DNA from: Blastocatellia bacterium
Lineage (GTDB): Bacteria > Acidobacteriota > Blastocatellia > UBA7656
Length of the DNA stretch: 64,000 nucleotides
Direction of reading: 5' to 3'
Assembly: GCA_963765495.1 (NCBI GenBank)
Contig: CAVXWP010000006.1
Location: 213,695 to 277,694, forward strand
Below are positions 45,184-64,000 of the stretch, piece by piece. The notes below the pieces were generated by a model. It was not told the origin of the DNA. It searched no databases and was given only the letters and a program-made list of their open reading frames with translations. Every line of letters starts with the position of its first letter. Positions within the stretch are counted from its first letter, which is position 1. The position numbers were made by a program, and so were the translations under genes.

Positions 45184-45373
45184 CGACTTTGATAAGATTC
45201 TATTAAGACCGAAGAAAGCGTTTGAATTACTCGACATCTCACGCTCGACCGGGTACGCACTTATTGCCTCTGGCAAATTACCATCTGTGCGTATCGGCCG
45301 GGCTGTCCGCGTGCCGGTTGGTGCTCTTAAGCAATGGGTCGAGCGACAAACAAACAAGGAAGACAAAGAATGA
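45176..45373 (+). CDS. Excisionase-family HTH protein
   Basis: LDISRSTGYALIASGKLPSVRIGRAVRVP; GGAGG RBS. Confidence 0.82.
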   Translation: MSDDFDKILLRPKKAFELLDISRSTGYALIASGKLPSVRIGRAVRVPVGALKQWVERQTNKEDKE

Positions 45374-48192: not shown

Positions 48193-48436
48193 AACGAGGA
48201 AATTTCAATCAATTTAGCCCCGTCTGATGGATGCTTAACGAGAAGTTTCCATCAGGTGAAGCGTAGAACGAGCGCGGCGGGCATTGGCTCGGCCAAATAC
48301 AGCCGGGCCTTTTTACTATCGCAGTTGGTGTAGTACAATGCCGCTATTAATTCAGCAAGCGATCAGAGAATCGCGGCTCTATCGTTCAATATCTCGCCAC
48401 GAAAAAAAGATACTAGCCTGTGCAAAGGGCTTCTCT

Positions 48437-48781
48437 ATGCATCGCAAAAAAAAATCTAAAGAAATATCACCCAAGATTGAGCCAATTAGAGGCTCGCTGA
48501 TGGCTCAGTATAAACGTTGCGGGCGTGTTAATTGCCGCTGCGCTAAGGGCTTCAAGCACGGGCCATTTTTCTACCACGTCTGGTACGTCAAAGGAATACG
48601 GTACAAGGCTTATGTGAAAAAGACAGATTTGGACCGAATTAAGGTTGGTATCGAAGCGTTTCGTACTGAGAGACGCAAACAGCAGCAATCTGCCGCAAAC
48701 TTACTAACTCTGCTGCGAGAGATGAGAGAGGAAAGCCGCAGAGTTAATGCAATTCTTCGATTGAGGGGGTTCAAAATATGA
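48437..48781 (+). CDS. DUF6788-like small basic Zn-binding protein
   Basis: RGSL...RCGRVNCRCAKGFKHGP. Confidence 0.65.
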   Translation: MHRKKKSKEISPKIEPIRGSLMAQYKRCGRVNCRCAKGFKHGPFFYHVWYVKGIRYKAYVKKTDLDRIKVGIEAFRTERRKQQQSAANLLTLLREMREESRRVNAILRLRGFKI

Positions 48782-49797
48782 AAGATGCAACGAAACAATT
48801 ACCGAATGTGCAGGAGGGTAAGCCTATCCAAATTCACAAGAAATCGCTCATCGGCCGGTGGGCTTCTGAGAGATGGTCTGTACTGCGCGAACTTTGGCGA
48901 GACCACATCAGCATGGTCGATTTTTACATGTCACCAAAGGGCGGCAGCCTTAGTATGGAAGATGCTCAACGAATCACTTCCGGTGAATACGTGTTCTCAA
49001 GTGATCGCACGGAAGATGGGAAGTGGATGCTGGTTCCCAAGAGCGGCACAAAGGAAGAAAAAGTTGATGCCGAGTTAGCACACAATCTGTCGTGGGATGT
49101 TGATAATCTATCCTTTTATGCACTGGATCATCTATTCAGGGCTAATTCTGACCTTGCAGAGCAGGTATGGGATGAAGTCAAAGAAGCGGCGGCGCAGGAT
49201 TTCCTTTCGGGCCATTTCGCCGCAGAACTGTTTGAGCGAACCGAGTGGCAGAAGAATGTCTGGAAGCGGGCGCATTTCGTGGCGGTCTTTCAGATGATGA
49301 TAGAGTCATACAAGCCGCGAGATGCAATCGAGCATCAGATGGTTGAGATGGCGGCGGTAGAGTATTTCCTATGGAGGCATTGGACTCAGGAGCATTTGCA
49401 GAGAGCGACAACTGAGCCGAGACGCGAGAATTATGATTACAAGGAGTGGCGGGAAAAGCAGAAAGAAATCTGGTGTAGGCAGAGCGGACAGAAAAGGCCG
49501 ATACAGGGACAATGGATAGCGGGAGCTTGGGAGTTGCCGTATCAGAGAGAGGCGGAGGCTGTGGAGAAAGCGGCAGAGTTAGCCGATAGGTTTAGGCGGG
49601 CTTATCATGCGTCCATACGCGCGCTGAGAGATTGGCGGCGTTATCCTGTGATCGTTCAGAATGCCAGACAGGTGAACATCGCGGCCGATGGCGGGCAGCA
49701 GGTGAACCTTCAGAAGAAAACCAAGAGGCGCGCAAAGAGTAAGAAGAAGGGCGAGACGGCATCTCCTAACTCGCGGCGGTTGAGGGTGGCGAAATGA
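48778..49797 (+). CDS. Hypothetical protein
   Basis: 339-aa ORF, ATGA overlap; PRDAIEHQMVE and VNIA..GQQVN segments. Confidence 0.7.
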   Translation: MKDATKQLPNVQEGKPIQIHKKSLIGRWASERWSVLRELWRDHISMVDFYMSPKGGSLSMEDAQRITSGEYVFSSDRTEDGKWMLVPKSGTKEEKVDAELAHNLSWDVDNLSFYALDHLFRANSDLAEQVWDEVKEAAAQDFLSGHFAAELFERTEWQKNVWKRAHFVAVFQMMIESYKPRDAIEHQMVEMAAVEYFLWRHWTQEHLQRATTEPRRENYDYKEWREKQKEIWCRQSGQKRPIQGQWIAGAWELPYQREAEAVEKAAELADRFRRAYHASIRALRDWRRYPVIVQNARQVNIAADGGQQVNLQKKTKRRAKSKKKGETASPNSRRLRVAK

Positions 49798-49875
49798 AGA
49801 TGACAACCTACGGCCCATTATAAGCGGTTGTGGCAACTTGAATCTGTCTTCATTCCGCCTCTGGTTTTTGCAATT

Positions 49876-50829
49876 CTATAGCTCAAGCGGGGAGCGAACT
49901 CCTTTACCTCCCCTGTTCAGTACATGCGTGTAGATCATTGTCGTGCTCACATCCTTATGCCCAAGAAGCTCCTGTACCGTCCGTATGTCATAGCCCACTT
50001 CGAGCAGGTGCGTTGCAAAACTATGGCGGAATGTATGGCAACTCGCCTGCTTATGAATGCCTGCCGCTCGAATCGCTGTTTTGACGGCCCTTTGCAGGCC
50101 AGTCTCAGCATAGTGATGCCGCTGTATCCTCCCTGTCCGAGGGTCAAGACTTCGCCTGTTTGCTGGAAATACATACTGCCAAGCCCATTCCCGATCAGCA
50201 TTTGGGTACTTCCTCGCTAGTGCATAGGGCAGATATACCTGCCCGTAGCCTTCGCGCAGGTCTTTCTCGTGCAATGCCTTAACGTGTGCCAAGTGTTGAC
50301 GAAGGGGCTCAAGGAGAGGAGCAGGCAGAAGGGTGAGTCTGTCTTTCATTCCTTTGCCATCACGCACGATGATCTGATTGTAACCAAAATCTATATCTTT
50401 GACTCGGAGTCGGAGACATTCCATCAAACGAAGTCCCGCACCGTAGAGCAAGCTAGCCATTAGGTGCCTCTCCCCTTTGAGATGGAGGAGGATGTTGCGT
50501 ACTTCTACTTTTGTGAAGACCACGGGCAGGCGAGCAGGCTTTTTTGCACGTTGAATATTGGAGAGCCAGCCAATTTGGATGTCGAGAACATCGTAGTAGA
50601 GAAAGAGCAAGGCGGAAGTTGCTTGATGTTGAGTGGCAGGTGCGACATTGCGGTCAACGGCGAGATGAGATAAAAAGGAGCTAACCTCAGCGGAGCCAAG
50701 GGAGGCAGGATGGCGTTTATGGTGGAAGAGGATGAATCGTTTGATCCAGTGGAGGTAGGCTTGCTCAGTGCGGATGGAGTAATTACGAGTGCGGAGAATG
50801 GATCGGACCTGATCAAGAAGTTTAGGCAT
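49876..50829 (-). CDS. intI: Integron integrase (tyrosine recombinase)
   Basis: [14 protein letters not shown], integron-specific insert [38 protein letters not shown]; start MPKLLDQVR. Confidence 0.97.
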
Positions 50830-50974
50830 GGAGGGGGACCTCGGAAGAGAGTAAGTCAACCTGGGTGCGTATAATATATTTGCAGAGAGTGCGTGTAAGC
50901 AAGCCGGTATGATGGGAAATGTTGAAACAAAAAGGGGTAAGAATTCAGTAGCGGAATTATACGGCCAAAAGTGC

Positions 50975-51017
50975 GTAAAAGGTTGCGCACAATAGGCAGT
51001 ATACTTCAAAGTTAAGC
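50975..51017 (+). other. attI site (crossover G/TTAAGC at 51011)
   Basis: First GTTRRRY with no preceding attC arm; downstream sequence matches the starts of cassettes 2 and 12; left boundary approximate. Confidence 0.82.
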
Positions 51018-51359
51018 GCGCTGGAAGTTGGTCGATGGGAATGAATCACATTGGTCGTCAAGAACGCAGCCAATATTACCTGCCTACAAATTGTGCTGTT
51101 TGACTCTCACTGGCCCTCAGATTGCAACCAGCGATCACCTCTCTTCGTCTGTCGAGTCAGCCTCACACTCCGCCGCGCTTCTTTAATAGGATAGGTCAAA
51201 GCCTCGCTAAAAGGCAAAGTGGGCCAGCGCGGCTATTACGAAGGCAATTATCTGTGACATACTTGCGAATCAGAACGCGCCTAACTGGTCGATCAACCGG
51301 ACGCGCATACCACCTTCTGGATGGCATCGGGGGCCACAGCGCGCCGGTTATCTCCGGCG
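51012..51359 (+). other. Cassette 1, ORF-less, family A
   Basis: 348 bp; near-identical to 2 and 12. Confidence 0.8.
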
Positions 51360-51365
51360 TTAAGC
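51279..51365 (+). repeat. attC 1
   Basis: GCCTAAC...ATCAACCGGACGCGC...GCGCGCCGGTTAT...GTTAAGC. Confidence 0.92.
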
Positions 51366-51707
51366 GCGCTGGGAGTTGGTCGATGGGAATCAATCACATT
51401 GGCCGTCAAGAACGCAGCCAATATTACCTGCCTACAAATTGTGCTGTTTGACTCTCACTGGCCCTCAGATTGCAACCAGCGATCACCTTTCTTCGTCTGT
51501 CGAGTCAGCCTCACACTCCGCCGCGCTTCTTTAATAGGATAGGTCAAAGCCTCGCTAAAAGGCAAAGTGGGCCAGCGCGGCTATTACGAAGGCAATTATC
51601 TGTGACATACTTGCGAATCAGAACGCGCCTAACTGGTCGATCAACCGGACGCGCATACCACCTTCTGGATGGCATCGGGGGCCACAGCGCGCCGGTTATC
51701 TCCGTCG
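51360..51707 (+). other. Cassette 2, ORF-less, family A (tandem copy of 1)
   Basis: 348-bp direct repeat. Confidence 0.8.
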
Positions 51708-51713
51708 TTAGGC
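51627..51713 (+). repeat. attC 2
   Basis: GCCTAAC...GTTAGGC. Confidence 0.92.
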
Positions 51714-51970
51714 TCGCGGGAAAGAACCTGACCAACAGCAACGAATTGGATGCAAAGGTATTTCGGACAACAAGACCATGATGACGAAAAGGTCAAAACA
51801 CCAAGCAAGGAGTTAAGGTTGGGGCCGCGCCAATCGAGGCAGACTGATTTGCTCGAAATAAGCGCCGAGCGACGGCCAAAGACAAAGGCGGGCCTAACAG
51901 GTCGATCAACCGGACCCGCATGCCAACCTCTCGTTATCCCTTTGCCCACGGCGGGCCGGTTATCTCCGCG
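51708..51970 (+). other. Cassette 3, ORF-less, family C
   Basis: 263 bp; copy at 23. Confidence 0.78.
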
Positions 51971-51976
51971 TTAAGC
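51892..51976 (+). repeat. attC 3
   Basis: GCCTAAC...GTTAAGC. Confidence 0.92.
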
Positions 51977-52249
51977 GCACAGGGAAGCGATCCGTGATAA
52001 TGAGCTACACTGATCGTCAACCAAGCAATCAGACTACATGTCTACAAAGTGTACTGACACAATCACTGCGCCGCGCTACCCGATAAATTCCGGTTGAGTC
52101 GAAGCTATCTGTTGGCGCGGCTTGGCATTTCGACAGTGGTATCTTTACCGAACCTTCAAGGTGGAATGCGCCTAACTGGTCCATCAACCGGACCCGCATT
52201 CCAACCCTTCATTATCCCTGAGCCCACAGCGGGCCGGTTATCTCCGGCG
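51971..52249 (+). other. Cassette 4, ORF-less, family B
   Basis: 279 bp; copy at 11. Confidence 0.8.
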
Positions 52250-52255
52250 TTAGGC
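52170..52255 (+). repeat. attC 4
   Basis: GCCTAAC...GTTAGGC. Confidence 0.92.
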
Positions 52256-52301
52256 CCCCTCGGTGACCTCAAAAGCCATCGCATAGAAAATTCAGTTCAA
52301 A

Positions 52302-52330
52302 TTGCTTGTCTTCTGTTTTCAACGTAGAAT
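52302..52330 (+). promoter_or_regulatory. Cassette-internal sigma70-like promoter
   Basis: TTGCTT-N17-TAGAAT. Confidence 0.55.
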
Positions 52331-52390
52331 TTGGATTCATTTGTGCGTTGCTTGGCTGGCAGAATCAAATCAAGAGGAAATATTCTTATT

Positions 52391-53131
52391 ATGAAACCGA
52401 TAGATCAGCTAAAGATGATGATTAGGGCTTTGAAGAGTCAGCTAGGTAAAATTGATGGTCTTCAGAGTAAAGACGAAGATGTTCACAAGAGATTGCTTCT
52501 TGTTGCCTTCCTGGACGCCATTGCTGCAATTATTTATCCAAAAAAATCTAATCAGGCTCGTTTCGTTTCACTATTGAAAGAGTTTTCCGAATGGGAGGAT
52601 TCGCAACGCATCAGTTTGCCTCATTTAGGGCGATTTTTGAGAATGACTCCTGATCCAGCCTTCGAAAAGCTACGAGTTTACGTCTTTAATGAACTTGATT
52701 CTTGGCGAACATTGCATCCTATTCCAATTTCCAATGATCCAGAGATAAAGTTCATCCCTCAGTTCTGGCCCAATGAGAAGGATTACAGAGGAACAATAAA
52801 TGGCATTACCTTAGACTCATTCTTGCACTGCAATCTTTTCTATGCCCAGAGAAATACTCTAATACATGAGTTCCGATTACCCGGCTGGCCAGAGGAAGGG
52901 ACTGAATTAGATTATCCTTATTACTCTAATCTAACAATAGAGATAGCCTCCATAATCAATAATGATATTTACCAATTAATTTACCCTACAGCCTTCTTTA
53001 AAGCGTTGTGTGAAAAAGCAATCGAGAACTTCGAGCTATATATCGAAAGAAATAGACTCGAAGTACTTCTACTAAGGCGTTCCAATGCTTTTTATTGGAT
53101 CGAGGAGTTGAATCGAGGTCATTTCAGTTAG
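52391..53131 (+). CDS. Cassette 5: hypothetical protein, possible HEPN-like RNase
   Basis: Fills cassette; FYAQRNTLIHE Rx4H motif. Confidence 0.7.
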   Translation: MKPIDQLKMMIRALKSQLGKIDGLQSKDEDVHKRLLLVAFLDAIAAIIYPKKSNQARFVSLLKEFSEWEDSQRISLPHLGRFLRMTPDPAFEKLRVYVFNELDSWRTLHPIPISNDPEIKFIPQFWPNEKDYRGTINGITLDSFLHCNLFYAQRNTLIHEFRLPGWPEEGTELDYPYYSNLTIEIASIINNDIYQLIYPTAFFKALCEKAIENFELYIERNRLEVLLLRRSNAFYWIEELNRGHFS

Positions 53132-53156
53132 AAGGAGTTCAAACCCATAGGCGAGG

Positions 53157-53241
53157 GCCTAACTGCTCAATCAACCGGACCCGCATGCCATCTCCTCATT
53201 ATCCCTCCAATACCAGCGGGCCGGTTATCTCGGCGTTAGAC
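53157..53241 (+). repeat. attC 5
   Basis: GCCTAAC...GTTAGAC. Confidence 0.92.
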
Positions 53242-53260
53242 GCCCGCAGTGGAAAATAGT

Positions 53261-53809
53261 ATGAGTTTAGAAGAGATGCAAAAAACATTTTTTGAAGCAG
53301 CTATTCGCGGTCAGCTAGAAGAACTTCGCTCGCTTATTGCTACAGGAGTTGATCTTAATTGCCAAAATGAAAAAGGGTGTACGGCTTTGATGGGAGCATC
53401 CGCAGGACCATTCCCCCAAGCCGTCAGATTGTTGTTGGACTCTGGAGCAGACACAAAGATTAAGGACCGACAAGGAAGAACAGCACTTATCTGGGCTGTT
53501 AGAGGAGCGATTTACGAGTACAACGAGAGTGCAATTGCAGTGGTAGAAGCGTTGATTGCATCTAATGCCGATGTGAATGCCAGTAGCGATGATGGTGCAA
53601 GTGTGCTCATATATGCGGCATCACATAATCAGCCTGAGATAGTTCAACTACTAATTAAGGCAGGTGCTGATGGCGATGCCGTGAGCAATGGTGGATGGAG
53701 GGCCATAGACTATGCGAAGGAATATGGCTATAGTGATGTGGCAGAGGTACTGATGAAGGGAAAGAGGATAAGCGAAGGAAATCCGGTAGATGGGGGCAAC
53801 GGCGTCTAA
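53261..53809 (+). CDS. Cassette 6: ankyrin repeat protein
   Basis: GCTALMGA, GRTALIWA, LLIKAGAD; stop lies in attC GTCTAAC. Confidence 0.9.
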   Translation: MSLEEMQKTFFEAAIRGQLEELRSLIATGVDLNCQNEKGCTALMGASAGPFPQAVRLLLDSGADTKIKDRQGRTALIWAVRGAIYEYNESAIAVVEALIASNADVNASSDDGASVLIYAASHNQPEIVQLLIKAGADGDAVSNGGWRAIDYAKEYGYSDVAEVLMKGKRISEGNPVDGGNGV

Positions 53810-53888
53810 CAGTCGGTTCGACCGGACGCGCATACCAACTACTCGTGTTCCCTCGGCCATCGCGCGCCGGTCAACCGAGGCGTTAAGC
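53804..53888 (+). repeat. attC 6
   Basis: GTCTAAC...GTTAAGC. Confidence 0.92.
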
Positions 53889-54161
53889 GCGCAGGAAGTG
53901 GTCCGAGGCAATCAATCACACTAATCGTCAAAGATGCAGCAGAAGGTGTCGCCCTCAAGCTATCGCTGTTACAATCAGTCCGCCGCGCTATCCGATAGAT
54001 GCTGGATTTCTGGAAATGATGTATGTGCGCGGCTTGCTCGAAGAACGGATATGGCGAATTGAACCGACAAGTCGGAACGCGCCTAACAGGTCGATCAACC
54101 GGACGCGCTTCCCAACTGTTCAGTTAAAGCGGAGGCCACGGCGCGCCGGTTATCTCCGTCG
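53883..54161 (+). other. Cassette 7, ORF-less, family B (divergent)
   Basis: 279 bp; same motifs as 4 and 22. Confidence 0.78.
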
Positions 54162-54167
54162 TTAGGC
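54081..54167 (+). repeat. attC 7
   Basis: GCCTAAC...GTTAGGC. Confidence 0.92.
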
Positions 54168-54423
54168 TCGCGGGGAAATTTCCTGACCAACAGCAACGAC
54201 ACAGAGGCGGAAAAAAGAGTGAACAATGTCATAGTAACTAAACGACGCAGTCACAAAGCAGCGAGTCAAGATTGGGGCCGCGCCTCCCGATATGCCTTGA
54301 TTGAATTGCCCAGAAAGCCGAGCGCGGCCAACGACAAAGGCGCGCCTAACATGGGCATTCAACGGACCCGCATACCAGCTTCTCGTTATCCCTTCGGCCA
54401 CAGCGGGCCGCTGATCCCCGGCG
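54162..54423 (+). other. Cassette 8, ORF-less, family C
   Basis: 262 bp; copy at 16. Confidence 0.75.
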
Positions 54424-54429
54424 TTAGGC
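54344..54429 (+). repeat. attC 8
   Basis: GCCTAAC...GTTAGGC. Confidence 0.9.
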
Positions 54430-54848
54430 GTCAGGACATCGATAGAGAGGAAACGATTCATCAAGCAATGCCAAAAAGACCTGCTTTGGAGTCGCTGCCG
54501 AGAACGATCAATCTTCTCGCCTTCATCAGACTCACACTTCTACAATGCAGTGCTTTCAGCTATGCTCTGTCTCTGGGTTATTTGCCAAAGAGCCTCTTCA
54601 AGCCAGTTTGCCTGATAAGCCTTGGCCAAAGCAGACCTGCTTGGGAAGGAAGCTTTCGACCAGGCAAACAGCTTTTAAGCAGTCAGGAAGAAACTGCAAA
54701 GAGAAGGGAGGAAGAGGATTGGAAGATGAAAACGAGCGAAGGCGAAGAGATAAATCAGCAAGGGGAGCCGCCTAACAAGTCGATCAACCGGACCCGCAAA
54801 CCAACATCTGGTTATCCCTTCACCCACAGCGGGCCGGTTATCTCGGTG
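54424..54848 (+). other. Cassette 9, probably non-coding, family D
   Basis: 425 bp; copy at 27; nested inverted repeats. Confidence 0.7.
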
Positions 54849-54854
54849 TTAGGC
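54770..54854 (+). repeat. attC 9
   Basis: GCCTAAC...GTTAGGC. Confidence 0.92.
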
Positions 54855-55274
54855 GTCAGAACATCGATAGAGAGGAAACGACTCAGCAAGTAAGTCGAAA
54901 AGACCTGCTTTGAAATCACTGCCGAGGACGATCAACCTTCTCGCTTCGATCAGACTCTCTCTTCTCCATAACTGTGCCTTCAGCTATTCTCTGTCGCAAG
55001 GTTGGCTGGCAATGCGCCTCTTCAATCGAGATTGCCTGCACAGGCTTGGCCAAAACAGACCTGCTTGGGAAGGATGCTTTCGACCAGACAACCAGCTATC
55101 GAGCAATGAGGAAGAGGCTGTACCGAGAAGAGAAGATTAGAATCTCAGGATGAATTTGAGCAAAGAGAAAGAGATAAATCAGCAAAGGCTGCCGCCTAAC
55201 AGCCGGTTCGACCGGACCCGCAAACCAACCACTCGTTTGCATCGAAGGCCACAGCGGGCCGTTCAACCGGGACG
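54849..55274 (+). other. Cassette 10, probably non-coding, family D (divergent)
   Basis: 426 bp; collinear paralogue of 9. Confidence 0.7.
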
Positions 55275-55280
55275 TTAAGC
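55194..55280 (+). repeat. attC 10
   Basis: GCCTAAC...GTTAAGC. Confidence 0.9.
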
Positions 55281-55552
55281 GCACAGGGAAGCGATCCGTG
55301 ATAATGAGCTACACTGATCGTCAACCAAGCAATCAGACTACATGTCTACAAAGTGTACTGACACAATCACTGCGCCGCGCTACCCGATAAATCCCGGTTG
55401 AGTCGAAGCTATCTGTTGGCGCGGCTTGGCATTTCGACAGTGGTATCTTTACCGAACCTTCAAGGTGGAATGCGCCTAACTGGTCCATCAACCGGACCCG
55501 CATTCCAACCCTTCATTATCCCTCCGACCACAGCGCGCCGGTTATCTCGGCG
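55275..55552 (+). other. Cassette 11, ORF-less, family B (copy of 4)
   Basis: 278 bp. Confidence 0.8.
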
Positions 55553-55558
55553 TTAAGT
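55474..55558 (+). repeat. attC 11
   Basis: GCCTAAC...GTTAAGT. Confidence 0.9.
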
Positions 55559-55900
55559 GCGCTGGGAGTTGGTCGATGGGAATCAATCACATTGGCCGTC
55601 AAGAACGCAGCCAATATTACCTGCCTACAAATTGTGCTGTTTGACTCTCACTGGCCCTCAGATTGCAACCAGCGATCACCTTTCTTCGTCTGTCGAGTCA
55701 GCCTCACACTCCGCCGCGCTTCTTTAATAGGATAGGTCAAAGCCTCGCTAAAAGGCAAAGTGGGCCAGCGCGGCTATTACGAAGGCATTCATCTATGACG
55801 AACTTGCAAATCAGAACGCGCCTAACTGGTCCATCAACCGGACGCGCTTTCCAACTTCTCAATATCATCGGAGGCCACGGCGCGCCGGTTATCTCCGTCG
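55553..55900 (+). other. Cassette 12, ORF-less, family A
   Basis: 348 bp; third copy with different 3' end and attC. Confidence 0.8.
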
Positions 55901-55906
55901 TTAGGC
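55820..55906 (+). repeat. attC 12
   Basis: GCCTAAC...GTTAGGC. Confidence 0.92.
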
Positions 55907-56421
55907 GTCAGATCACCGACGAAAGGGAGACGACTCAGTTTGCCTTGCTGTTGAAACCTGTCCAGGCAAGTCATCGCCAGGACCCCTACTTGCTCGATTC
56001 TCTTGCCTCTTTATCCCCTTCTGCTCTGCTGTGTCTCTCATCCCTGCTCCTTCATCTGACACTTCTTTCTCCCAAAGCAGTCTTTCAGCATTGCTCATAT
56101 AAACCTGTCTGGCGAAGAAGCCTGTTCAGCCGATTGCCTGTTGAGACAAGCATCAGAGAGGCGAGTTTGGAAAAGAGGAAGTAGGCAGATCAAAAAGCTT
56201 CCCCGACGAAAGAGAGCAACACCTGTCGCACGAGAGAGGAAATGACCTGTGAGGAAGAAGAGAAACTGTGCAGAAACGAGAGATAAGAATAGGAGGGTTA
56301 TGATCAGGAAAGCTCAAGAAGGATGAATCGGCGAAGGAAGCCGCCTAACTGCTCATTCCAGCGGACGCGCATGCCACCGATTCATTATCCCTCCACCCAC
56401 AGCGCGCCGCTGAACTCGTCG
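55901..56421 (+). other. Cassette 13, ORF-less, family E
   Basis: 521 bp; pyrimidine-rich then purine-rich halves. Confidence 0.72.
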
Positions 56422-56427
56422 TTAGGC
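56343..56427 (+). repeat. attC 13
   Basis: GCCTAAC...TTCCAGCGG...CCGCTGAA...GTTAGGC. Confidence 0.92.
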
Positions 56428-56890
56428 GTCAGAATACCGCTGAACCGATACGACTCATCAAGCGGTGATAAGTTCTGGCAAGTCATCGTGAGAACTGCTA
56501 CTTGCTCGCCTCTCATCCCTCTTTCCCCATTACTACTCTCCCTGTTCACTCAACTCTCCTCCTTTAACAGATACTGTTTTCTTCCAAAGCAGGCTTCTAC
56601 CACTGCTCAAAAATAGACATGCCTATCAAAGATACCTTCATAGGGCAATAGCCTGTTGAGGGGAGTGGCAGACAAGAGTGATTGGTAAAGCGAAACTGGC
56701 ACATCAAGCTGCTTTCCCGACAATATCAGGAAAAGCAATTGCCGGAAGAGAGACTGAGAAAGGAGAGATTATAGTCAGCAAAGAGGAAGAAAATGAAACG
56801 AAGAAAGAGCCGCCTAACTGCTCATTCCAGCGGACGCGCATTCCACCGTTTCGTGTTCCGCCAGCTACCAGCGCGCCGCTGAACTCGTCG
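56422..56890 (+). other. Cassette 14, ORF-less, family E
   Basis: 469 bp; central block homologous to 20 and 13. Confidence 0.72.
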
Positions 56891-56896
56891 TTAGGC
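56812..56896 (+). repeat. attC 14
   Basis: GCCTAAC...GTTAGGC. Confidence 0.92.
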
Positions 56897-56941
56897 TTCC
56901 GCAGTGATTTGACATTTCCAAAGTCAGACTATTCCAATTCT

Positions 56942-56995
56942 TGCTATAATCTTGAACTTGGTTCAAGTTGCCATTGCGTATTATACCCGTAGAGT
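56942..56995 (+). promoter_or_regulatory. Cassette-internal promoter candidates
   Basis: Extended -10 TGcTATAAT 56942-50; TTGCCA-N16-TAGAGT 56968-95. Confidence 0.5.
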
Positions 56996-57001
56996 TTAAA
57001 C

Positions 57002-57502
57002 ATGGCTGAAACTAAAACGACATTTGCCTCCAAGCCATACAATGAGGGACCAGCCTTCCTGTCTTTAGAATTCGGGATTTTGTCTCCTCAGGTTACTGCT
57101 ATTGACGAAGCTATACAAGCCTTTCAAGTTGACGTTTGGCAAATTGAAAATGAGACAACCCATCATCTCGTTGTAAATGCCTATTATCCAGAGCTTGAAC
57201 GGGATTTATGCGATCAACTTGGTCCTCGTTTAGCCAAGTATTTTGGCGATGTAATCGTCTCTTTTACGGTGAGTGATGAAGATGGAAAAGCAAATTTCTA
57301 TATATCGTCGCTTCCATCAGAAAAGGGTTGGCTGCTATCCGTGGCAAGTGCAATCGCAGTCGTAAAACGATCCTGTGGTTGGGAAGAAAAGGAGATAATT
57401 CGGATTCTATGTGAAAACACGGGAGAAAGTATCGAGGTGAAAAATCCGAGGAACGAAGAGAATCACTTTGTGGTAGAGGTATATCCCGAGGAAGAAGCCT
57501 AA
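57002..57502 (+). CDS. Cassette 15: hypothetical protein
   Basis: 166 aa, stop lies in attC GCCTAAC. Confidence 0.78.
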   Translation: MAETKTTFASKPYNEGPAFLSLEFGILSPQVTAIDEAIQAFQVDVWQIENETTHHLVVNAYYPELERDLCDQLGPRLAKYFGDVIVSFTVSDEDGKANFYISSLPSEKGWLLSVASAIAVVKRSCGWEEKEIIRILCENTGESIEVKNPRNEENHFVVEVYPEEEA

Positions 57503-57581
57503 CTGCTCAATCAACCGGACGCGCATTCCAACGCTTCATTATTCCTCAGCCGCCAGCGCGCCGGTTATCTCGGCGTTAGGC
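57497..57581 (+). repeat. attC 15
   Basis: GCCTAAC...GTTAGGC. Confidence 0.92.
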
Positions 57582-57837
57582 TCGCGGGGAAATTTCCTGA
57601 CCAACAGCAACGACACAGAGGCGGAAAAAAGAGTGAACAATGTCATAGTAACTAAACGACGCAGTCACAAAGCAGCGAGTCAAGATTGGGGCCGCGCCTC
57701 CCGATATGCCTTGATTGAATTGCCCAGAAAGCCGAGCGCGGCCAACGACAAAGGCGCGCCTAACATGGGCATTCAACGGACCCGCATACCAGCGTCTCGT
57801 TATCCCTTCGCCCACAGCGGGCCGCTGATTCCCGGCG
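57576..57837 (+). other. Cassette 16, ORF-less, family C (copy of 8)
   Basis: 262 bp. Confidence 0.75.
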
Positions 57838-57843
57838 TTAGGC
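57758..57843 (+). repeat. attC 16
   Basis: GCCTAAC...GTTAGGC. Confidence 0.9.
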
Positions 57844-57920
57844 TCCCGCTGTCAGTCTGCGATACTATGCATGAATGAGTTTTTGGCCAATCATTTTATC
57901 AATTCCTGGGCTAACCTAAT

Positions 57921-57949
57921 TTGATTATGTATCTGGTTACATCTAGAAT
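57921..57949 (+). promoter_or_regulatory. Cassette-internal sigma70-like promoter
   Basis: TTGATT-N17-TAGAAT. Confidence 0.58.
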
Positions 57950-58014
57950 TAAGACTCTTTAGACCCTATATTCCGTAGTTTGGTGTAATCACCAATAGAA
58001 GGAGCTTGAGGATT

Positions 58015-58947
58015 ATGTATCATGATAAGTGCTGGCTTCTCACATTTTCAATTTTTCTAATTCTCTTCTTGACAGGCATAAAGATCAGCGTCAAATGTCA
58101 GAACAACCAGTCAGATAATTTGACGATATTAAATGTTCTCGTCCTCGATTCACAGGGCCGTCCAGTCCTGGATGTCAAGCAAGATGATATGCGCATTCTG
58201 GAGGATGGCACTCCCCAAGAAATCACGTACTTCTCAAAGGATGAACTTCCACTCAGGTACTGCATAGTAGTTGATACATCCGGCTCAATGAACAGGGTGA
58301 ACAACCGAAATCTAAATGTGGCTAAAGCAGTACTTAACAATCACAAGTCTACTGATGAGGTAGCATTAATTGAATTCAAGGACCAGCCTGAACTATTAAC
58401 GAAGTTTACACCAGATAAGGAAGTTGTTGCCAAAACGATTGAGAGTTTGCGAGGTAGAGCATCACGTCCGGCAGCCCTGCTTGATGCCGTATATCTTGCT
58501 TTGCAGTATGTAAGTGACTACAAGCCTGAAGATCGGTCGAATCGCCGAGCATTGATCCTAATTACCGATGGCCTCGACCATGAGAGCTATTATACACTTG
58601 GTGAATTGCGAAAACGGATTGACCAAGCATACATTCAAATTTTTGTCATCAAGATAGACTTGGCTGAACTTGATAAATCGCACAAGCCGTCTGGACCACA
58701 AGCACAAAAGTGGATGCTAAAAGAGATTGCAAAAGAGAGTGGTGGCCTGTTGCTTACTCCAAAGGAAGCTGAATTGGAACAGGTAGCTGAAGGAATTCTA
58801 TCGACCTTAAGAAAGCAGTACGTAATTGGTTACAAGCCAAATCGAAGGAAGAAGAAAGATTCTCACGAGGTCAAAGTTAATATAAGCGATATACCTGGAG
58901 GTGCAAAACGGACGGCAATAGTGCGGACGGAATATTTGGATAAGTAA
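58015..58947 (+). CDS. Cassette 17: secreted VWA domain protein (acidobacterial VWFA type)
   Basis: MIDAS DTSGSM, LILITDG.D, EDG.PQ.I, QYVIGY.P; alternative start 58006. Confidence 0.88.
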   Translation: MYHDKCWLLTFSIFLILFLTGIKISVKCQNNQSDNLTILNVLVLDSQGRPVLDVKQDDMRILEDGTPQEITYFSKDELPLRYCIVVDTSGSMNRVNNRNLNVAKAVLNNHKSTDEVALIEFKDQPELLTKFTPDKEVVAKTIESLRGRASRPAALLDAVYLALQYVSDYKPEDRSNRRALILITDGLDHESYYTLGELRKRIDQAYIQIFVIKIDLAELDKSHKPSGPQAQKWMLKEIAKESGGLLLTPKEAELEQVAEGILSTLRKQYVIGYKPNRRKKKDSHEVKVNISDIPGGAKRTAIVRTEYLDK

Positions 58948-58999
58948 AAGGTTGAGGATGATTTGTTGAAGGGAGGTAATCTTCACTCGTGCGGACCAA

Positions 59000-59084
59000 G
59001 CCTAACTGCTCATTCCAGCGGACGCGCGTGCTAACGTCTCGTGTTCCACCATCTACCAGCGCGCCGCTGAACTCGTCGTTAGGC
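59000..59084 (+). repeat. attC 17
   Basis: GCCTAAC...GTTAGGC. Confidence 0.92.
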
Positions 59085-59199
59085 TTACATTGTCGCTCTG
59101 AATTCTGGATTCAACTTCTCCTCTCTCTTTGTTTTATCGGTTTTGATTTCACCGCTTCTGAGGTAAACTGATTATCCTAAACACTTTGCGGAGTCGCTT

Positions 59200-59568
59200 A
59201 TGCTCAGAGTTGTTAAAGTCCTATTCTTCTTTCTGTTGGCATCTTCGATTGCCATATTTGGCACAGCAGCTTGGCTGGACGAAACAAAACAAGATTGGAC
59301 AGTAAACCTTGTTGAAGGTTCACCTCAACATTATCCACAGGTATGTCCACTACATTCTGTCGAGATGAAATGGGATAGGGTTCCCATTATTTACGGTTTG
59401 CTTATCAATAGCCCGAATGATTTGAAGAATTATCCTCACTCAAACAAATGGGTAGGGGGTGGTTGTCTTGGAGGCGGCGAACCACGCTATGCATTAATTC
59501 GCTATTGTCCTGAATGCCGGAATATAGAAAAAGGAATGAGCAAAGTATTGGCTGATGAAGGCAAATGA
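59200..59568 (+). CDS. Cassette 18: small exported Cys-motif protein
   Basis: Signal/TM, CPLH...VPIIYG...GGC...YCPEC; GGAG RBS. Confidence 0.75.
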   Translation: MLRVVKVLFFFLLASSIAIFGTAAWLDETKQDWTVNLVEGSPQHYPQVCPLHSVEMKWDRVPIIYGLLINSPNDLKNYPHSNKWVGGGCLGGGEPRYALIRYCPECRNIEKGMSKVLADEGK

Positions 59569-59576
59569 AGGAACCA

Positions 59577-59661
59577 GCCTAACTGCTCATTCCAGCGGAC
59601 GCGCTTTCCACCTATCCATTTTCCCTTTGCTACCAGCGCGCCGCTGAACTCGTCGTTAGGC
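59577..59661 (+). repeat. attC 18
   Basis: GCCTAAC...GTTAGGC. Confidence 0.92.
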
Positions 59662-59740
59662 TCGCTCGGTAATCCGATATTTCTTGGTTTGGACAAACCA
59701 ACAAACATTTCATTTTTCTCAAATTCGGGATAGATTCAAA

Positions 59741-59769
59741 TTGAATAACTGCTTGATTCCGTATAGAAT
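59741..59769 (+). promoter_or_regulatory. Cassette-internal sigma70-like promoter
   Basis: TTGAAT-N17-TAGAAT. Confidence 0.62.
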
Positions 59770-59807
59770 CTGCACTCTTCTCTTAATCTTCTCGTAATTG
59801 TGCGTTA

Positions 59808-60545
59808 ATGAGGTCCACACCTATGATTCTTGAGATTTCGTCTTGGGTCGCAGAAGGCTTGTTTGGCGCAATTGTGCATGGCGGACGTAGACTGCGCCTC
59901 CTTTTTACCCTGGCCGCTTCTTCTATTGGCCTCGCCATAGTTTGTGCAATAGTGGCAGAGAATCTTCCGAATCAAAAACCACTCTTGAATATAGTGGCCG
60001 GAATCCTCGGTGTTATTGGAGCAATGCTCATCATTGGAATTGCAGGCTATCAGCGTGTCCTAATTGCAAGCGAGCACCAGGAAGTGATAAAGAGAGTAGA
60101 AGAACGTGTTAGAGAACACCCAAATGAGCCACAGGCAGCTTGGGAGCTTGCAAGAATCAAACTCGAAATCTACTTAAATCGGAATCTGGCTCAAATCCGT
60201 TGGATTTTCTTTCGATGCCTACTGGTAATTACTGCTGGTTTCATCGTTATTGGCTATGGAACTATTCAAGTCTATAAATCTCCTGATAATTTTCAACCAT
60301 CAATTGTCGTCACTTTAGCTGGAATAATTGTAGAGTTTATTGCAGCAACTTTTTTGCTAATTTATAAGTCCACGATGGAACAAGCTAGAGATTATGTCAA
60401 CATCCTTGAAAGAATCAATGCTGTTGGAATGTCTGTTCAGATACTCGAAAGTATGGAGTCTGATGATACAGGATTGAGAGATAAAACTCGTGCTGAAATT
60501 GCGGCTGGACTTCTCTCACTTTATGGTTTGACGCGGGGCAAATGA
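59808..60545 (+). CDS. Cassette 19: 4-TM membrane protein, resembles TRADD-N-associated membrane domain
   Basis: Y..RNLAQ.RWIF...GF, GII.EFIAATFL.IY..T..QA pattern; family recognised by eye. Confidence 0.72.
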   Translation: MRSTPMILEISSWVAEGLFGAIVHGGRRLRLLFTLAASSIGLAIVCAIVAENLPNQKPLLNIVAGILGVIGAMLIIGIAGYQRVLIASEHQEVIKRVEERVREHPNEPQAAWELARIKLEIYLNRNLAQIRWIFFRCLLVITAGFIVIGYGTIQVYKSPDNFQPSIVVTLAGIIVEFIAATFLLIYKSTMEQARDYVNILERINAVGMSVQILESMESDDTGLRDKTRAEIAAGLLSLYGLTRGK

Positions 60546-60566
60546 CTTGCATCGACAAGGGGCCAA

Positions 60567-60651
60567 GCCTAACTGCTCATTCCAGCGGACGCGCATGCCA
60601 ACTGCTCGCGTTCCATCAGCTACCGGCGCGCCGCTGAACTCGTCGTTAGGC
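60567..60651 (+). repeat. attC 19
   Basis: GCCTAAC...GTTAGGC. Confidence 0.92.
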
Positions 60652-61086
60652 GTCAGATCACCGATGAAAGGGAAACGACTCAACAAGCAACGCTACGAAA
60701 ACCAGTTCAGGCGAGTCATAGCGAGGAGAGCCTCTTGCTCGCTTCTCTCTTCTCTTGTTCCTTCATATGATATTTCTTCCAAACGATTGTTCAGCATTGC
60801 TCAATGATAAACCCACCTCGAAAAGATACCTTCGCATGGCAATTGCCTGTTGAGGAATGTGGCAGGACAAACCTGATTGGAAAAGACGAACTTGGCACAT
60901 CAAGCTGCTTTCTAAGCAATAGCAGGAAAACCTATCTCAGAAAGTGAGGCTGAGAATTGGAGGATCAGGGCCAGCAAAACTCAAGTAATGAAAGCAGGCA
61001 AGGGACCGCCTAACTGCTCAATCAACCGGACCCGCATACCAACTCCTCGTTATTCCTTCGGCCACAGCGGGCCGGTTATCTCGGTG
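60646..61086 (+). other. Cassette 20, ORF-less, family E
   Basis: 441 bp; 5' end like 13, centre like 14. Confidence 0.72.
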
Positions 61087-61092
61087 TTAGAC
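61008..61092 (+). repeat. attC 20
   Basis: GCCTAAC...GTTAGAC. Confidence 0.92.
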
Positions 61093-61116
61093 AGCTGACG
61101 TCATGGTGACTTTCAA

Positions 61117-61482
61117 GTGATGGATGACCGATTGAGACAACTTCTCGAATCTAAACAAAGCGACCCACTTGTCTTGGATTGTCTTGACAGGATTAAGAGA
61201 CAAGGTGAATACCGATACTTCAAGACAAGTCCACTTCTCATCGCTGACGTTGCTCGCGTCTGCTCTGTGCGCGCAGCAATAAACAAAGGGAGGGACGTAT
61301 CGAGGACTGAGGGGTTTGATGAGCTTCTATCATCGTTGAAAGGAGCAGATGGACAAACAATAGAAGTACACTCAATAGAGCTCAAGTCAGTTTGGTTTAC
61401 AATACTCACTGACCAGTCTATAGAATCGCTCTTCGGTATTTTGAGGTCGCCGAAAGAGCAGGCAAAATGGTTTGAGCAATGA
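61117..61482 (+). CDS. Cassette 21: hypothetical protein
   Basis: 121 aa, fills cassette; identical copy at 62180. Confidence 0.72.
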   Translation: MMDDRLRQLLESKQSDPLVLDCLDRIKRQGEYRYFKTSPLLIADVARVCSVRAAINKGRDVSRTEGFDELLSSLKGADGQTIEVHSIELKSVWFTILTDQSIESLFGILRSPKEQAKWFEQ

Positions 61483-61525
61483 GAGAAAAACAAAAGACCA
61501 AAGAATGCTCGCAGGAAAAGACGCC

Positions 61526-61612
61526 GTCTAACAACCGGTTCGACCGGACCCGCAATCCAACCACTCGCTTGAAGGGGAGGCCACAGCGGGCCGTTCAACC
61601 GGGGCGTTAGGC
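61526..61612 (+). repeat. attC 21
   Basis: GTCTAAC...GTTAGGC. Confidence 0.9.
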
Positions 61613-61887
61613 GCACAGGAAAGCCATCCGTGAAAATGAGGCATACTACTCGTCTACGAAGCAATCAGACTAATTGCCTGCCAACAGTGCTGACACAATC
61701 AGTCCGCCGCGCCCTCCTATATTTGCTGATTGAAAAGCAAATCAACACTGGGCGCGCCTTGGCAGAGGGGAACGAGTAACTCTATTGAACCTACAAGGTG
61801 GAATGCGCCTAACTGGTCCATCAACCGGACGCGCTTTCCAACTACTCATTTGTATCGAGGCCCACAGCGCGCCGGTTATCTCCGGCG
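61607..61887 (+). other. Cassette 22, ORF-less, family B
   Basis: 281 bp; copy at 25. Confidence 0.78.
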
Positions 61888-61893
61888 TTAGGC
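61807..61893 (+). repeat. attC 22
   Basis: GCCTAAC...GTTAGGC. Confidence 0.92.
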
Positions 61894-62149
61894 TCGCGGG
61901 AAAGTACCTGACCAACAGCAACGAATTGGATGCAAAGGTATTTCGGACAACAAGACCATGATGACGAAAAGGTCAAAACACCAAGCAAGGAGTTAAGGTT
62001 GGGGCCGCGCCAATCGAGGCAGACTGATTTGCTCGAAATAAGCGCCGAGCGCGGCCAAAGACAAAGGCGGGCCTAACAGGTCGATCAACCGGACCCGCAT
62101 GCCAACCTCTCGTTATCCCTTTGCCCACGGCGGGCCGGTTATCTCCGCG
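61888..62149 (+). other. Cassette 23, ORF-less, family C (copy of 3)
   Basis: 262 bp. Confidence 0.78.
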
Positions 62150-62155
62150 TTAGAC
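62071..62155 (+). repeat. attC 23
   Basis: GCCTAAC...GTTAGAC. Confidence 0.92.
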
Positions 62156-62179
62156 AGCTGACGTCATGGTGACTTTCAA

Positions 62180-62545
62180 GTGATGGATGACCGATTGAGA
62201 CAACTTCTCGAATCTAAACAAAGCGACCCACTTGTCTTGGATTGTCTTGACAGGATTAAGAGACAAGGTGAATACCGATACTTCAAGACAAGTCCACTTC
62301 TCATCGCTGACGTTGCTCGCGTCTGCTCTGTGCGCGCAGCAATAAACAAAGGGAGGGACGTATCGAGGACTGAGGGGTTTGATGAGCTTCTATCATCGTT
62401 GAAAGGAGCAGATGGACAAACAATAGAAGTACACTCAATAGAGCTCAAGTCAGTTTGGTTTACAATACTCACTGACCAGTCTATAGAATCGCTCTTCGGT
62501 ATTTTGAGGTCGCCGAAAGAGCAGGCAAAATGGTTTGAGCAATGA
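62180..62545 (+). CDS. Cassette 24: hypothetical protein (copy of 21)
   Basis: Identical translation to 61117-61482. Confidence 0.72.
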   Translation: MMDDRLRQLLESKQSDPLVLDCLDRIKRQGEYRYFKTSPLLIADVARVCSVRAAINKGRDVSRTEGFDELLSSLKGADGQTIEVHSIELKSVWFTILTDQSIESLFGILRSPKEQAKWFEQ

Positions 62546-62588
62546 GAGAAAAACAAAAGACCAAAGAATGCTCGCAGGAAAAGACGCC

Positions 62589-62675
62589 GTCTAACAACCG
62601 GTTCGACCGGACCCGCAATCCAACCACTCGCTTGAAGGGGAGGCCACAGCGGGCCGTTCAACCGGGGCGTTAAGC
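62589..62675 (+). repeat. attC 24
   Basis: GTCTAAC...GTTAAGC. Confidence 0.9.
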
Positions 62676-62950
62676 GCACAGGAAAGCCATCCGTGAAAAA
62701 GAGGCATACTACTCGTCTATGAAGCAATCAGACTAATTGCCTGCCAACAGTGCTGACACAATCAGTCCGCCGCGCCCTCCTATATTTGCTGATTGAAAAG
62801 CAAATCAACACTGGGCGCGCCTTGGCAGAGGGGAACGAGTAACTCTATTGAACCTACAAGGTGGAATGCGCCTAACTGGTCCATCAACCGGACGCGCATA
62901 CCAATGTCTCGCTTGCATTGCAGGCCACAGCGCGCCGGTTATCTCCGTCG
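62670..62950 (+). other. Cassette 25, ORF-less, family B (copy of 22)
   Basis: 281 bp. Confidence 0.78.
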
Positions 62951-62956
62951 TTAGGC
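62870..62956 (+). repeat. attC 25
   Basis: GCCTAAC...GTTAGGC. Confidence 0.92.
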
Positions 62957-63034
62957 TCGCTCGACCTCCCGTTGCTTCTTGGTTTGGAGAAAACTGAGAC
63001 TCTTCGAATTTCCTGATTGCTCTGGCCGCTTCAA

Positions 63035-63063
63035 TTGAATATCAAACCGATTCTTCGTAGAAT
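63035..63063 (+). promoter_or_regulatory. Cassette-internal sigma70-like promoter
   Basis: TTGAAT-N17-TAGAAT. Confidence 0.62.
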
Positions 63064-63112
63064 CAATTTTCTTTATGACTACTAAATCTCAGTTTGGCCG
63101 CAGGAGGGAGCT

Positions 63113-63502
63113 ATGAAGCGTACGTGGACAATCATAGGCGTTGCTGATGTTACTCGAAGTTTCAAGTGGTATCAGTCGCTGTTTGGCCAACCGGAAACCA
63201 ATCCCGCTCATCAGGACTTCGGGCAAATCCTAGACACCGATGCAACGGTCTTGCTTTGCCTTCACCAGTGGGGAGCCCACGAACATCCACCACTGACCAG
63301 TCCCGATCATGCTCAGCCTGGCAATGGACTACTCTTGTTCTTTCGTGTGGACGACTTCGATGAGACGCTGCATCGAGCACGTGCCCTTGTCGCTGAACTG
63401 GAAGAGGAACCGCATGTGAGCCCCAATACCGGCACCAGAGAATTCGCACTCCGAGATCCTGATGGGTATTACGTGATGGTCAGTGCGCTGGCTGCGGCCT
63501 AA
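63113..63502 (+). CDS. Cassette 26: VOC/glyoxalase family protein
   Basis: VADVTRSFKWYQSLFG, FRVDD, REFALRDPDGY; AGGAGG RBS; stop lies in attC. Confidence 0.9.
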   Translation: MKRTWTIIGVADVTRSFKWYQSLFGQPETNPAHQDFGQILDTDATVLLCLHQWGAHEHPPLTSPDHAQPGNGLLLFFRVDDFDETLHRARALVAELEEEPHVSPNTGTREFALRDPDGYYVMVSALAAA

Positions 63503-63581
63503 CTGCTCATTCCAGCGGACGCGCATTCCACCATTTGATTATCCCTTTGCCACCAGCGCGCCGCTGAACTCGGCGTTAGGC
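63497..63581 (+). repeat. attC 26
   Basis: GCCTAAC...GTTAGGC. Confidence 0.92.
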
Positions 63582-64000
63582 GTCAGAATATCGATAGAGA
63601 GGAAACGGCTCATCAAGCGATGCCAAAAAGACCTGTTATGGAGTCACTGCCGAGAACGATCAATCTTCTCGCCTTCATCAGGCTCACACTTCTACAATGC
63701 AGTGCTTTCAGCTATGCTCTGTCTCTGGGTTATTTGCCAAAGAGCCTCTTCAAGCCAGTTTGCCTGATAAGCCTTGGCCAAAGCAGACCTGCTTGGGAAG
63801 GAAGCTTTCGACCAGGCAAACAGCTTTTAAGCAGTCAGGAAGAAACTGCAAAGAGAAGGGAGGAAGAGGATTGGAAGATGAAAACGAGCGAAGGCGAAGA
63901 GATAAATCAGCAAGGGGAGCCGCCTAACAAGTCGATCAACCGGACCCGCAAACCAACTTCTCGTTATCCCTGAGCCCACAGCGGGCCGGTTATCTCGGTG
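63576..64000 (+). other. Cassette 27, probably non-coding, family D (copy of 9)
   Basis: 425 bp to window end. Confidence 0.7.
63922..64000 (+). repeat. attC 27 (truncated by window end)
   Basis: GCCTAAC...CCGGTTATCTCGGTG. Confidence 0.85.

Follow-up and report, generated by a model that had tools for sequence, protein, structure and literature searches.

The closest described counterparts of the element analysed here are the non-coding cassettes of Vibrio integrons. In the sections of Boucher et al. 2006 (PMC1382264) devoted to them, such cassettes account for 6–49% of the Vibrio arrays (up to 107 of 219 cassettes), with family copies numbering 45 and 34 in two V. vulnificus strains; the families are conserved over their full length without a synonymous-site pattern, have homologues in close relatives only, and were suggested either to be selfish or to serve the integron, as promoters or RNAs. 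Here we describe an integron in the genome of a Blastocatellia bacterium, located in a 64,000-nucleotide (nt) stretch of DNA (G000:C6:213695-277694, hereafter the window) whose end is also the end of its contig, in which 18 of the 27 cassettes carry no conserved open reading frame (ORF) and fall into five families, A to E. Genome-wide, the gene-less cassettes form two superfamilies (A/B and D/E) plus family C, and account for roughly half of a total exceeding 200 cassettes in three co-resident integrons.

Since 2006 it has been asked why large chromosomal integrons keep so many gene-less cassettes, and promoter activity, in Vibrio and Treponema, is the only answer so far put to the test. Tansirichaiya and colleagues are said to have reported, in 2019, promoter-carrying cassettes that are gene-less or ORF-less. 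Sense promoter activity in most of 29–30 gene-less Vibrio cassettes, from promoters that could not be identified in silico, is described in the corresponding part of Blanco et al. 2024 (PMC11014356). Like those promoter cassettes, the ones described here are gene-less, interspersed with coding cassettes and found in large arrays, and a regulatory effect on their neighbours is possible; unlike them, they show no promoter-like site in families A, B and C and almost none in E, as far as in silico prediction goes. With the Vibrio families (PMC1382264) they share that both are gene-less, multi-copy and lineage-restricted, carry a normal attC and fill up to about half of an array. By comparison of descriptions, the differences are that the present host belongs to another lineage, one from soil, that its families span three integrons with distinct integrases, and that their bodies are shorter (190–450 nt) and have a GC content near the genome mean, where the Vibrio cassettes are AT-rich. 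Repeated families of gene-less cassettes are thus not new, Vibrio being the earlier case. Word searches of the literature found no report of similar families in Acidobacteria, which is not proof of absence. Families A–E were missing from all 40 related genomes searched (two had an ~80-nt attC-like match only), nhmmer searches with five family profiles and an attC profile gave no family match in 169 pattern-fetched or relative loci, and scans with loose patterns drew at least 119 metagenome stretches and 48 genome-contig stretches, all of them chance matches.

The platform and array in the window constitute a genuine integron, with an integrase gene, an attI and a series of attC sites all in place. 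The attI crossover GTTAAGC lies 179 nt from the start of intI, which is divergently oriented, and the junction ...TTCAAAGTTA(A/G)GC precedes the first cassette in all three integrons of the genome. Cassettes were parsed as R'' (RYYYAAC) / R' (GTTRRRY) pairs spaced 78–80 nt, yielding 26 complete pairs and a 27th attC cut by the window end. The attC sites have inverted cores around an imperfect dyad, occur once per cassette and share a single orientation.

The composition of the gene-less families had been proposed from the letters of the window in an earlier sequence-only reading, and all-against-all blastn recovered the exact memberships (A: cassettes 1, 2, 12; B: 4, 7, 11, 22, 25; C: 3, 8, 16, 23; D: 9, 10, 27; E: 13, 14, 20). 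The near-constant lengths it had noted in B, C and D were likewise found again, with GTT-to-AAC bodies of 206–208, 190–192 and 353–354 nt, beside 275/275/275 in A and 450/398/370 in E, and so was the arrangement in which family members fill positions 1–4 after attI and are otherwise interspersed with protein-coding cassettes. A profile built from the window attC sites detected 252 sites in the 7.3-Mb genome (nhmmer; 238 above 40 bits), and tblastn located three intI genes, the one in the window, one at C17:4153-5103 (88% amino acid identity) and one at C3:315780-316727 (65%); gene-less families and near-identical attI junctions are common to all three integrons. Among 213 cassettes catalogued between neighbouring attC sites, 105 belong to the families (B 35, E 31, C 15, A 14, D 10), and any other cassette cluster in the genome has at most three copies, a pattern well beyond what chance would give. 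Further family copies lie beside the three attI sites, at contig ends and within longer units where an attC was missed. Comparison of family profiles revealed full-length homology between A and B and between D and E. The family bodies have a GC content of 0.48–0.52, closer to that of the genome (0.537) than are the coding cassettes (0.45). One soil DNA run (X1, share 0.24) contained short contigs of repeated cassettes breaking at attC sites, adding nothing on order or function.

A partial copy of family B also occurs outside any array (G000:C13:158410-158551), after a half attC-like site; an IS3-like transposase ORF follows immediately downstream. Probably this is what is left of a solo cassette that has decayed and been cut by the insertion sequence.

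The 18 ORF-less units of the window are genuine integron cassettes, consisting of a body and its own downstream attC and moved as units by the integrase. Identical bodies (eight of one B, seven of one C, six of another B, three of one A) are found behind differing upstream cassettes. The copies are identical from GTT onwards and, in most cases, up to the next R' after the downstream attC, with differing sequence outside; these bounds are exactly those of the unit moved by IntI. Two different attC types occur downstream of some identical family B bodies, a sign that paralogues also recombine with each other, and copies that are otherwise identical differ in the 2–3 bases preceding the R' GTT. 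Taken together, the variable attC type and pre-GTT bases suggest recombination or gene conversion between paralogous cassettes. In each of the three integrons a gene-less cassette comes first after attI (A, A and E), and 11 of the 12 cassettes occupying the first four positions are gene-less (binomial P=0.0027 against the 105/213 background, for arrays that are not fully independent). This attI-proximal enrichment points to ongoing mobility and recent insertion. No fixed adjacency or composite unit of gene-less cassettes with particular neighbours was detected in the arrays of the genome.

Substitutions within the families are spread evenly over codon phases (A 48/50/49, B 68/67/68, C 25/28/23, D 58/60/67, E 139/135/134). 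The duplicated coding cassettes, having identical ORFs, were useless as a control, and the intI paralogues were taken instead; they gave 26/18/107 and 105/61/194, with a single gap of 3 nt. The 1-nt indels described earlier were borne out, as gap runs are mostly 1 nt long and in every family the majority are not a multiple of three (A 6/8, B 8/10, C 7/7, D 3/5, E 39/43). In family D the open frame is a different one in different subfamilies for homologous sequence; by length alone its members, with stop-free frames of 87–124 codons, would not pass as ORF-less under published length thresholds (150 bp for Boucher 2006, 210 bp for Blanco 2024), though the frame is not conserved. The longest ORFs of family B, counted from GTT through 90 nt downstream, are mostly ~50–60 amino acids (aa) and at most 76 aa. 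A Shine-Dalgarno-like purine run with ATG or GTG ~24 nt after GTT is present in most A members and about half of B, with an ORF in 10 of 19 unique B sequences; the start is absent in 4–5 unique B sequences, others have early stops, and 1-nt indels shift the frame. Pfam gave no match at E<=0.1 for 11 ORFs over gene-less cassettes. The 141-aa ATG ORF of cassette 9, which runs on into cassette 10, was searched against the protein database; it matched ten proteins, none with a Pfam domain, and nine of these were 94–98% identical and thus the genome's own or near-identical copies, with no distant homologue found. By these comparative measures, families A–E encode no protein.

Five proteins in public assemblies (P0001, P0003, P0006, P0007 and P0010; 134–203 aa) span family D cassettes together with their attC sites. 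Most likely they are artefacts of gene calling, and the practical consequence is that gene callers create spurious 'proteins' from gene-less cassettes in public databases.

Constraint on the bodies was assessed by counting parsimony changes per ungapped column on a tree, and by comparing the index of dispersion, and observed invariant columns, with a Poisson expectation. Bodies of A, C and D gave dispersions of 0.90, 1.02 and 0.89 (invariant columns 50% vs 50%, 55% vs 55% and 52% vs 53% expected), although these small families are without power, as their own attC sites also give about 1.0–1.15. Dispersion was higher in the bodies of B (1.17; 28% vs 20%), E (1.61; 19% vs 9%), D+E (1.56; 9% vs 4%) and A+B (1.43; 16% vs 9%), and higher again in attC of B (2.57; 47% vs 28%), attC of E (2.65; 44% vs 21%) and all attC sites (14.7; 27% vs 0%). 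The longest invariant run is 2 nt in D+E (2–3 nt in D and E bodies), and 5 nt in A+B, where it falls in a GC clamp described below (p=0.013). Site-specific constraint is therefore far weaker in the bodies than in their own recombination sites, yet the bodies are not strictly neutral.

We suggest, with a probability of roughly 0.5, that the gene-less families are low-cost filler or selfish cassettes, promoter-less and untranslated. Extra copies of short cassettes with neither promoter nor ORF would probably come at near-zero cost to the host, and every time IntI excises such a cassette and re-inserts it at attI, a further copy can be left behind; with nothing to remove them, such cassettes would be expected to accumulate. 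As a side effect, untranslated stretches at the head of the array may uncouple the platform promoter from the genes behind. The sequence-only reading had offered two explanations: a library of structured non-coding RNAs (ncRNAs) or single-stranded DNA (ssDNA) elements, which remained unsupported, and selfish minimal cassettes using IntI, which agree better with the mobility, the attI enrichment, the lack of ORFs and promoter-like sites and the weak constraint.

Several observations weigh against this interpretation. Body columns are not purely Poisson, with an excess of invariant ones in B, E and D+E, and the arms of the GC clamp are invariant in 18 distinct B sequences, which together imply some constraint beyond a pure-junk model. 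Members sharing as little as 57–66% identity are still collinear, and pairwise identity among unique members reaches down to 0.57–0.68. Moreover, the attC sites of the families do not look like superior ones. We estimated pfold, the probability of an R-box-closed attC hairpin, a crude measure computed under DNA parameters with 120 nt of upstream sequence as context; its median was 0.001 in B, 0.22 in E, 0.63 in A, 0.92 in C and 0.82 in D, compared with 0.63 for the other 98 sites, so that family attC sites fall below those of other cassettes overall (Mann-Whitney p=0.002). Finally, six array stretches run off contig ends, and copy numbers and order rest on one assembly; the integrons may therefore join into fewer, longer arrays. 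Residual constraint, collinearity at <60% identity and the least foldable attC sites in the commonest families are left unexplained by a filler or selfish origin.

A better attC as the cause of abundance was considered and rejected, as the two commonest families, B and E, have the least foldable attC sites by prediction. Superior substrate quality does not explain the abundance of the families, and a 'hyper-mobile parasite' is unsupported too.

Alternatively, the gene-less cassettes could be cis-regulatory, acting on their neighbours as promoters, antisense silencers or polarity-inducing insulators, which we regard as possible but on balance doubtful. This idea draws on the promoter activity on record for gene-less cassettes of Vibrio (PMC11014356) and Treponema (section 2.4.3 of PMC8876359), and on the passages of PMC11511950 according to which the first cassette sets the expression of downstream cassettes, with cassette translation pointed to as a key factor; gene-less cassettes stand directly behind attI in all three integrons here, and their bodies show some rate heterogeneity. 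However, the sigma-70 rule of our tool gave no match within the gene-less cassettes of the window, whereas sites were present in the leaders of coding cassettes 15, 17, 19 and 26 (TTGnnn, a spacer of 16–17 nt, TAGAAT or TAGAGT; a further one was recognised by eye). Genome-wide, the same rule gave sense-strand sites in 0 of 35 unique A/B/C bodies, 1 of 25 in E and 4 of 9 in D, compared with 45 of 74 coding cassettes. In 21 of 64 cassettes with a sense ORF the site is in the leader (median leader length 118 nt), TAGAAT being the commonest -10 (9/21). Coding cassettes behind gene-less ones are not poorer in promoter-like sites of their own (8/26, vs 10/34 of the others; Fisher p=1.0), and no preferred neighbour exists. 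A GC content near 50% also removes the argument from spurious AT-rich promoters that was made for Vibrio.

Coding cassettes with their own promoter-like leaders differ from the textbook promoter-less cassette. It may even be that this genome holds the reverse of the textbook integron, in which many reservoir genes carry promoter-like leaders, while the attI-adjacent slots are occupied by self-propagating untranslated cassettes from two ancient superfamilies that act both as IntI parasites and as insulators of the platform promoter. Propagation or insulation would then be determined by what little is conserved in their cores, namely the clamp in A/B/C and isolated positions in D/E. We consider this combined scenario speculative and unlikely.

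The notion of a structured ncRNA library (sponges or regulators), expressed from the platform promoter or by read-through, appears improbable. It has a precedent in sRNA-Xcc1, a trans-acting small RNA encoded by a Xanthomonas integron cassette according to the section of PMC8876359 that covers it, and the first position in an array would give Pc expression. There the cassette product is an RNA; for families A–E no conserved fold or target was found. The cassettes had been called 'structured', a description that found no support, there being no Rfam match, z-scores scattered around 0, no RNAalifold consensus and covariation not above a column-shuffle null. Rfam returned nothing in the cassettes at E<=1, the only match in positions 49800–64000 being RF01111 (E=0.98), inside intI. 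Minimum free energy (MFE) z-scores against dinucleotide shuffles were, for plus/minus strands, -1.69/-1.88 in B, -1.60/-4.07 in D cassette 9 and +0.78/-0.70 in E cassette 20; they ranged from -3.8 to +2.0 over both strands of 16 further members, with no family or strand trend. In all, 22 strand-folds spread between -4.1 and +2.0, their sign being inconsistent. Single members do fold well, namely cassette 9 on its minus strand, one A (z=-3.8) and one C (z=-3.5/-3.8), but the other three D members gave +1.13, +0.62 and -0.79 on the minus strand.

Of the conserved inverted repeats and motifs also claimed for these families, those that recur are an end stem, formed by R'/R'' plus 1–4 bp, and in A, B and C a 6–8-bp GC clamp (GCCGCGC...GCGCGGC) around a ~40-nt loop, both visible in base-pair probabilities averaged over all unique members. 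D and E proved to have no shared helix besides the end stem, nor long invariant runs. RNAalifold on MAFFT family alignments recovered, on both strands, the end stem and clamp only, with mostly positive covariance terms, and found 0 pairs in the shared 5' 105 nt of 28 A+B sequences. Pair types in the helices of B and C did not exceed those in column-shuffled alignments (B plus strand, 8 vs 6.9). Of 20 pairs tested in the end stem, the clamp and a TTG/CAA stem, 17 are invariant across 18 distinct B sequences; the one pair that covaries (AU 12, GC 5, GU 1) extends the R box and so follows attC logic. As all sequences are paralogues of one genome, the power of covariation is limited and an invariant helix is neither supported nor excluded by it. 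No antisense target outside the arrays stood out, with 134 short matches vs 83 in reversed controls, the best being unmasked family copies.

In one family B member of 301 nt (G000:C2:562170-562470; L183:4170-4470, minus strand), the clamp loop is interrupted by a 99-nt insertion that contains a GC-rich hairpin of its own. The insertion may be a small nested insertion element.

That the bodies serve as ssDNA helpers or maskers, modulating bottom-strand folding of the neighbouring attC and so tuning excision, is very improbable in our view. In bottom-strand folds of family B, GCGC-rich segments of the body do offer pairings that rival the canonical attC hairpin, B and E have low predicted pfold values, and cassette ends pair over 8–11 bp with one covarying pair. 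The rival pairings, however, depend on GCGC palindromes, and the MFE structures that show them have a negligible frequency in the ensemble; pfold is normal or high in A, C and D, the canonical hairpin being predicted in the bottom-strand centroid of A; and coding cassettes, inspected by eye, also have 8–10 bp of end complementarity. The internal hairpin or clamp was also tried as a degenerate attC and rejected, as only one of 35 bodies matches attC, at E=4.7. The view that the cassettes are small-protein genes or their decaying remnants, based on a 22–30-aa ORF near the 5' end of A/B with its Shine-Dalgarno-like run and start, or on the whole-cassette frame of D over which gene callers called proteins, is scarcely tenable given flat codon phases beside a strong control, homologous stretches put into different frames by 1-nt indels, missing starts or early stops in B, and no Pfam match or distant homologue of the D ORF.

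The arrays of this genome provide a second, independent large example of gene-less cassettes, with about half of >200 cassettes, three integrons and GC-neutral bodies, for which the promoter answer is unlikely in silico. They offer no new kind of biology by themselves, and make the genome a useful system for comparing selfish-cassette and regulatory models.

Table 1. Integron platform and cassettes in the window (window positions; aa, amino acids)
Feature	Position	Strand	Basis	Remarks
intI, integron integrase	49876..50832	-	TIGR02249, 487 bits (cut-off 265); PF00589 and PF13495 also match	
attI region	50950..51017	+	first GTTRRRY without partner R''	crossover GTTAAGC at 51011
Cassette 1, family A	51011..51358	+	parsing, blastn	gene-less, with own attC
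Cassette 2, family A	51359..51706	+	parsing, blastn	
Cassette 3, family C	51707..51969	+	parsing, blastn	
Cassette 4, family B	51970..52248	+		one of 8 identical bodies in the genome
Cassettes 5–6, protein-coding	52249..53881	+		266-aa unknown; 186-aa ankyrin repeat; promoter-like site by eye, 52302-52330
Cassette 7, family B	53882..54160	+	parsing, blastn	
Cassette 8, family C	54161..54422	+		one of 7 identical bodies
Cassette 9, family D	54423..54847	+		whole-cassette open frame without coding constraint
Cassette 10, family D	54848..55273	+	parsing, blastn	
Cassette 11, family B	55274..55551	+	parsing, blastn	
Cassette 12, family A	55552..55899	+	parsing, blastn	
Cassette 13, family E	55900..56420	+	parsing, blastn	
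Cassette 14, family E	56421..56889	+	parsing, blastn	
Cassette 15, protein-coding	56890..57574	+		166 aa, no Pfam; promoter-like site 56968-56995
Cassette 16, family C	57575..57836	+	blastn	identical to cassette 8
Cassettes 17–19, protein-coding	57837..60644	+		VWA; 122-aa unknown; CyanoTRADDas_TM membrane protein; promoter-like leader sites in 17 (57921-57949) and 19 (59741-59769)
Cassette 20, family E	60645..61085	+	parsing, blastn	
Cassette 21, protein-coding	61086..61605	+		121 aa, identical to cassette 24
Cassette 22, family B	61606..61886	+	parsing, blastn	
Cassette 23, family C	61887..62148	+	parsing, blastn	
Cassette 24, protein-coding	62149..62668	+		duplicate of cassette 21
Cassette 25, family B	62669..62949	+		one of 6 identical bodies
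Cassette 26, protein-coding	62950..63574	+		glyoxalase-like; promoter-like site 63035-63063
Cassette 27, family D	63575..64000	+		cut by the end of the window and contig C6

The remaining nine cassettes of the window (Table 1) are filled by ORFs, with Pfam matches to ankyrin, VWA, a TRADD-N-associated membrane domain and a glyoxalase-like family, the rest being unknowns, two of them identical copies. The TRADD-N-associated 2-TM domain (PF20712) has a connection to conflict systems. Its cyanobacterial form is present (E=5.9e-18) in the 245-aa membrane protein of cassette 19 (59808-60545), and an identical second copy lies on contig C2. Just past intI (45334-49797) lie genes for a 952-aa primase-like protein, with a CHC2 zinc finger and Toprim, and for a 339-aa protein without a Pfam family; the two suggest an island of phage or plasmid origin beside the integron platform. 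The cassette pair 21–22 (61086-61886) recurs as 24–25 (62149-62949) at 100% and 98.6% identity, with family C cassette 23 in between, an arrangement that is, judging from the matching copies, a segmental or a repeated paired insertion.

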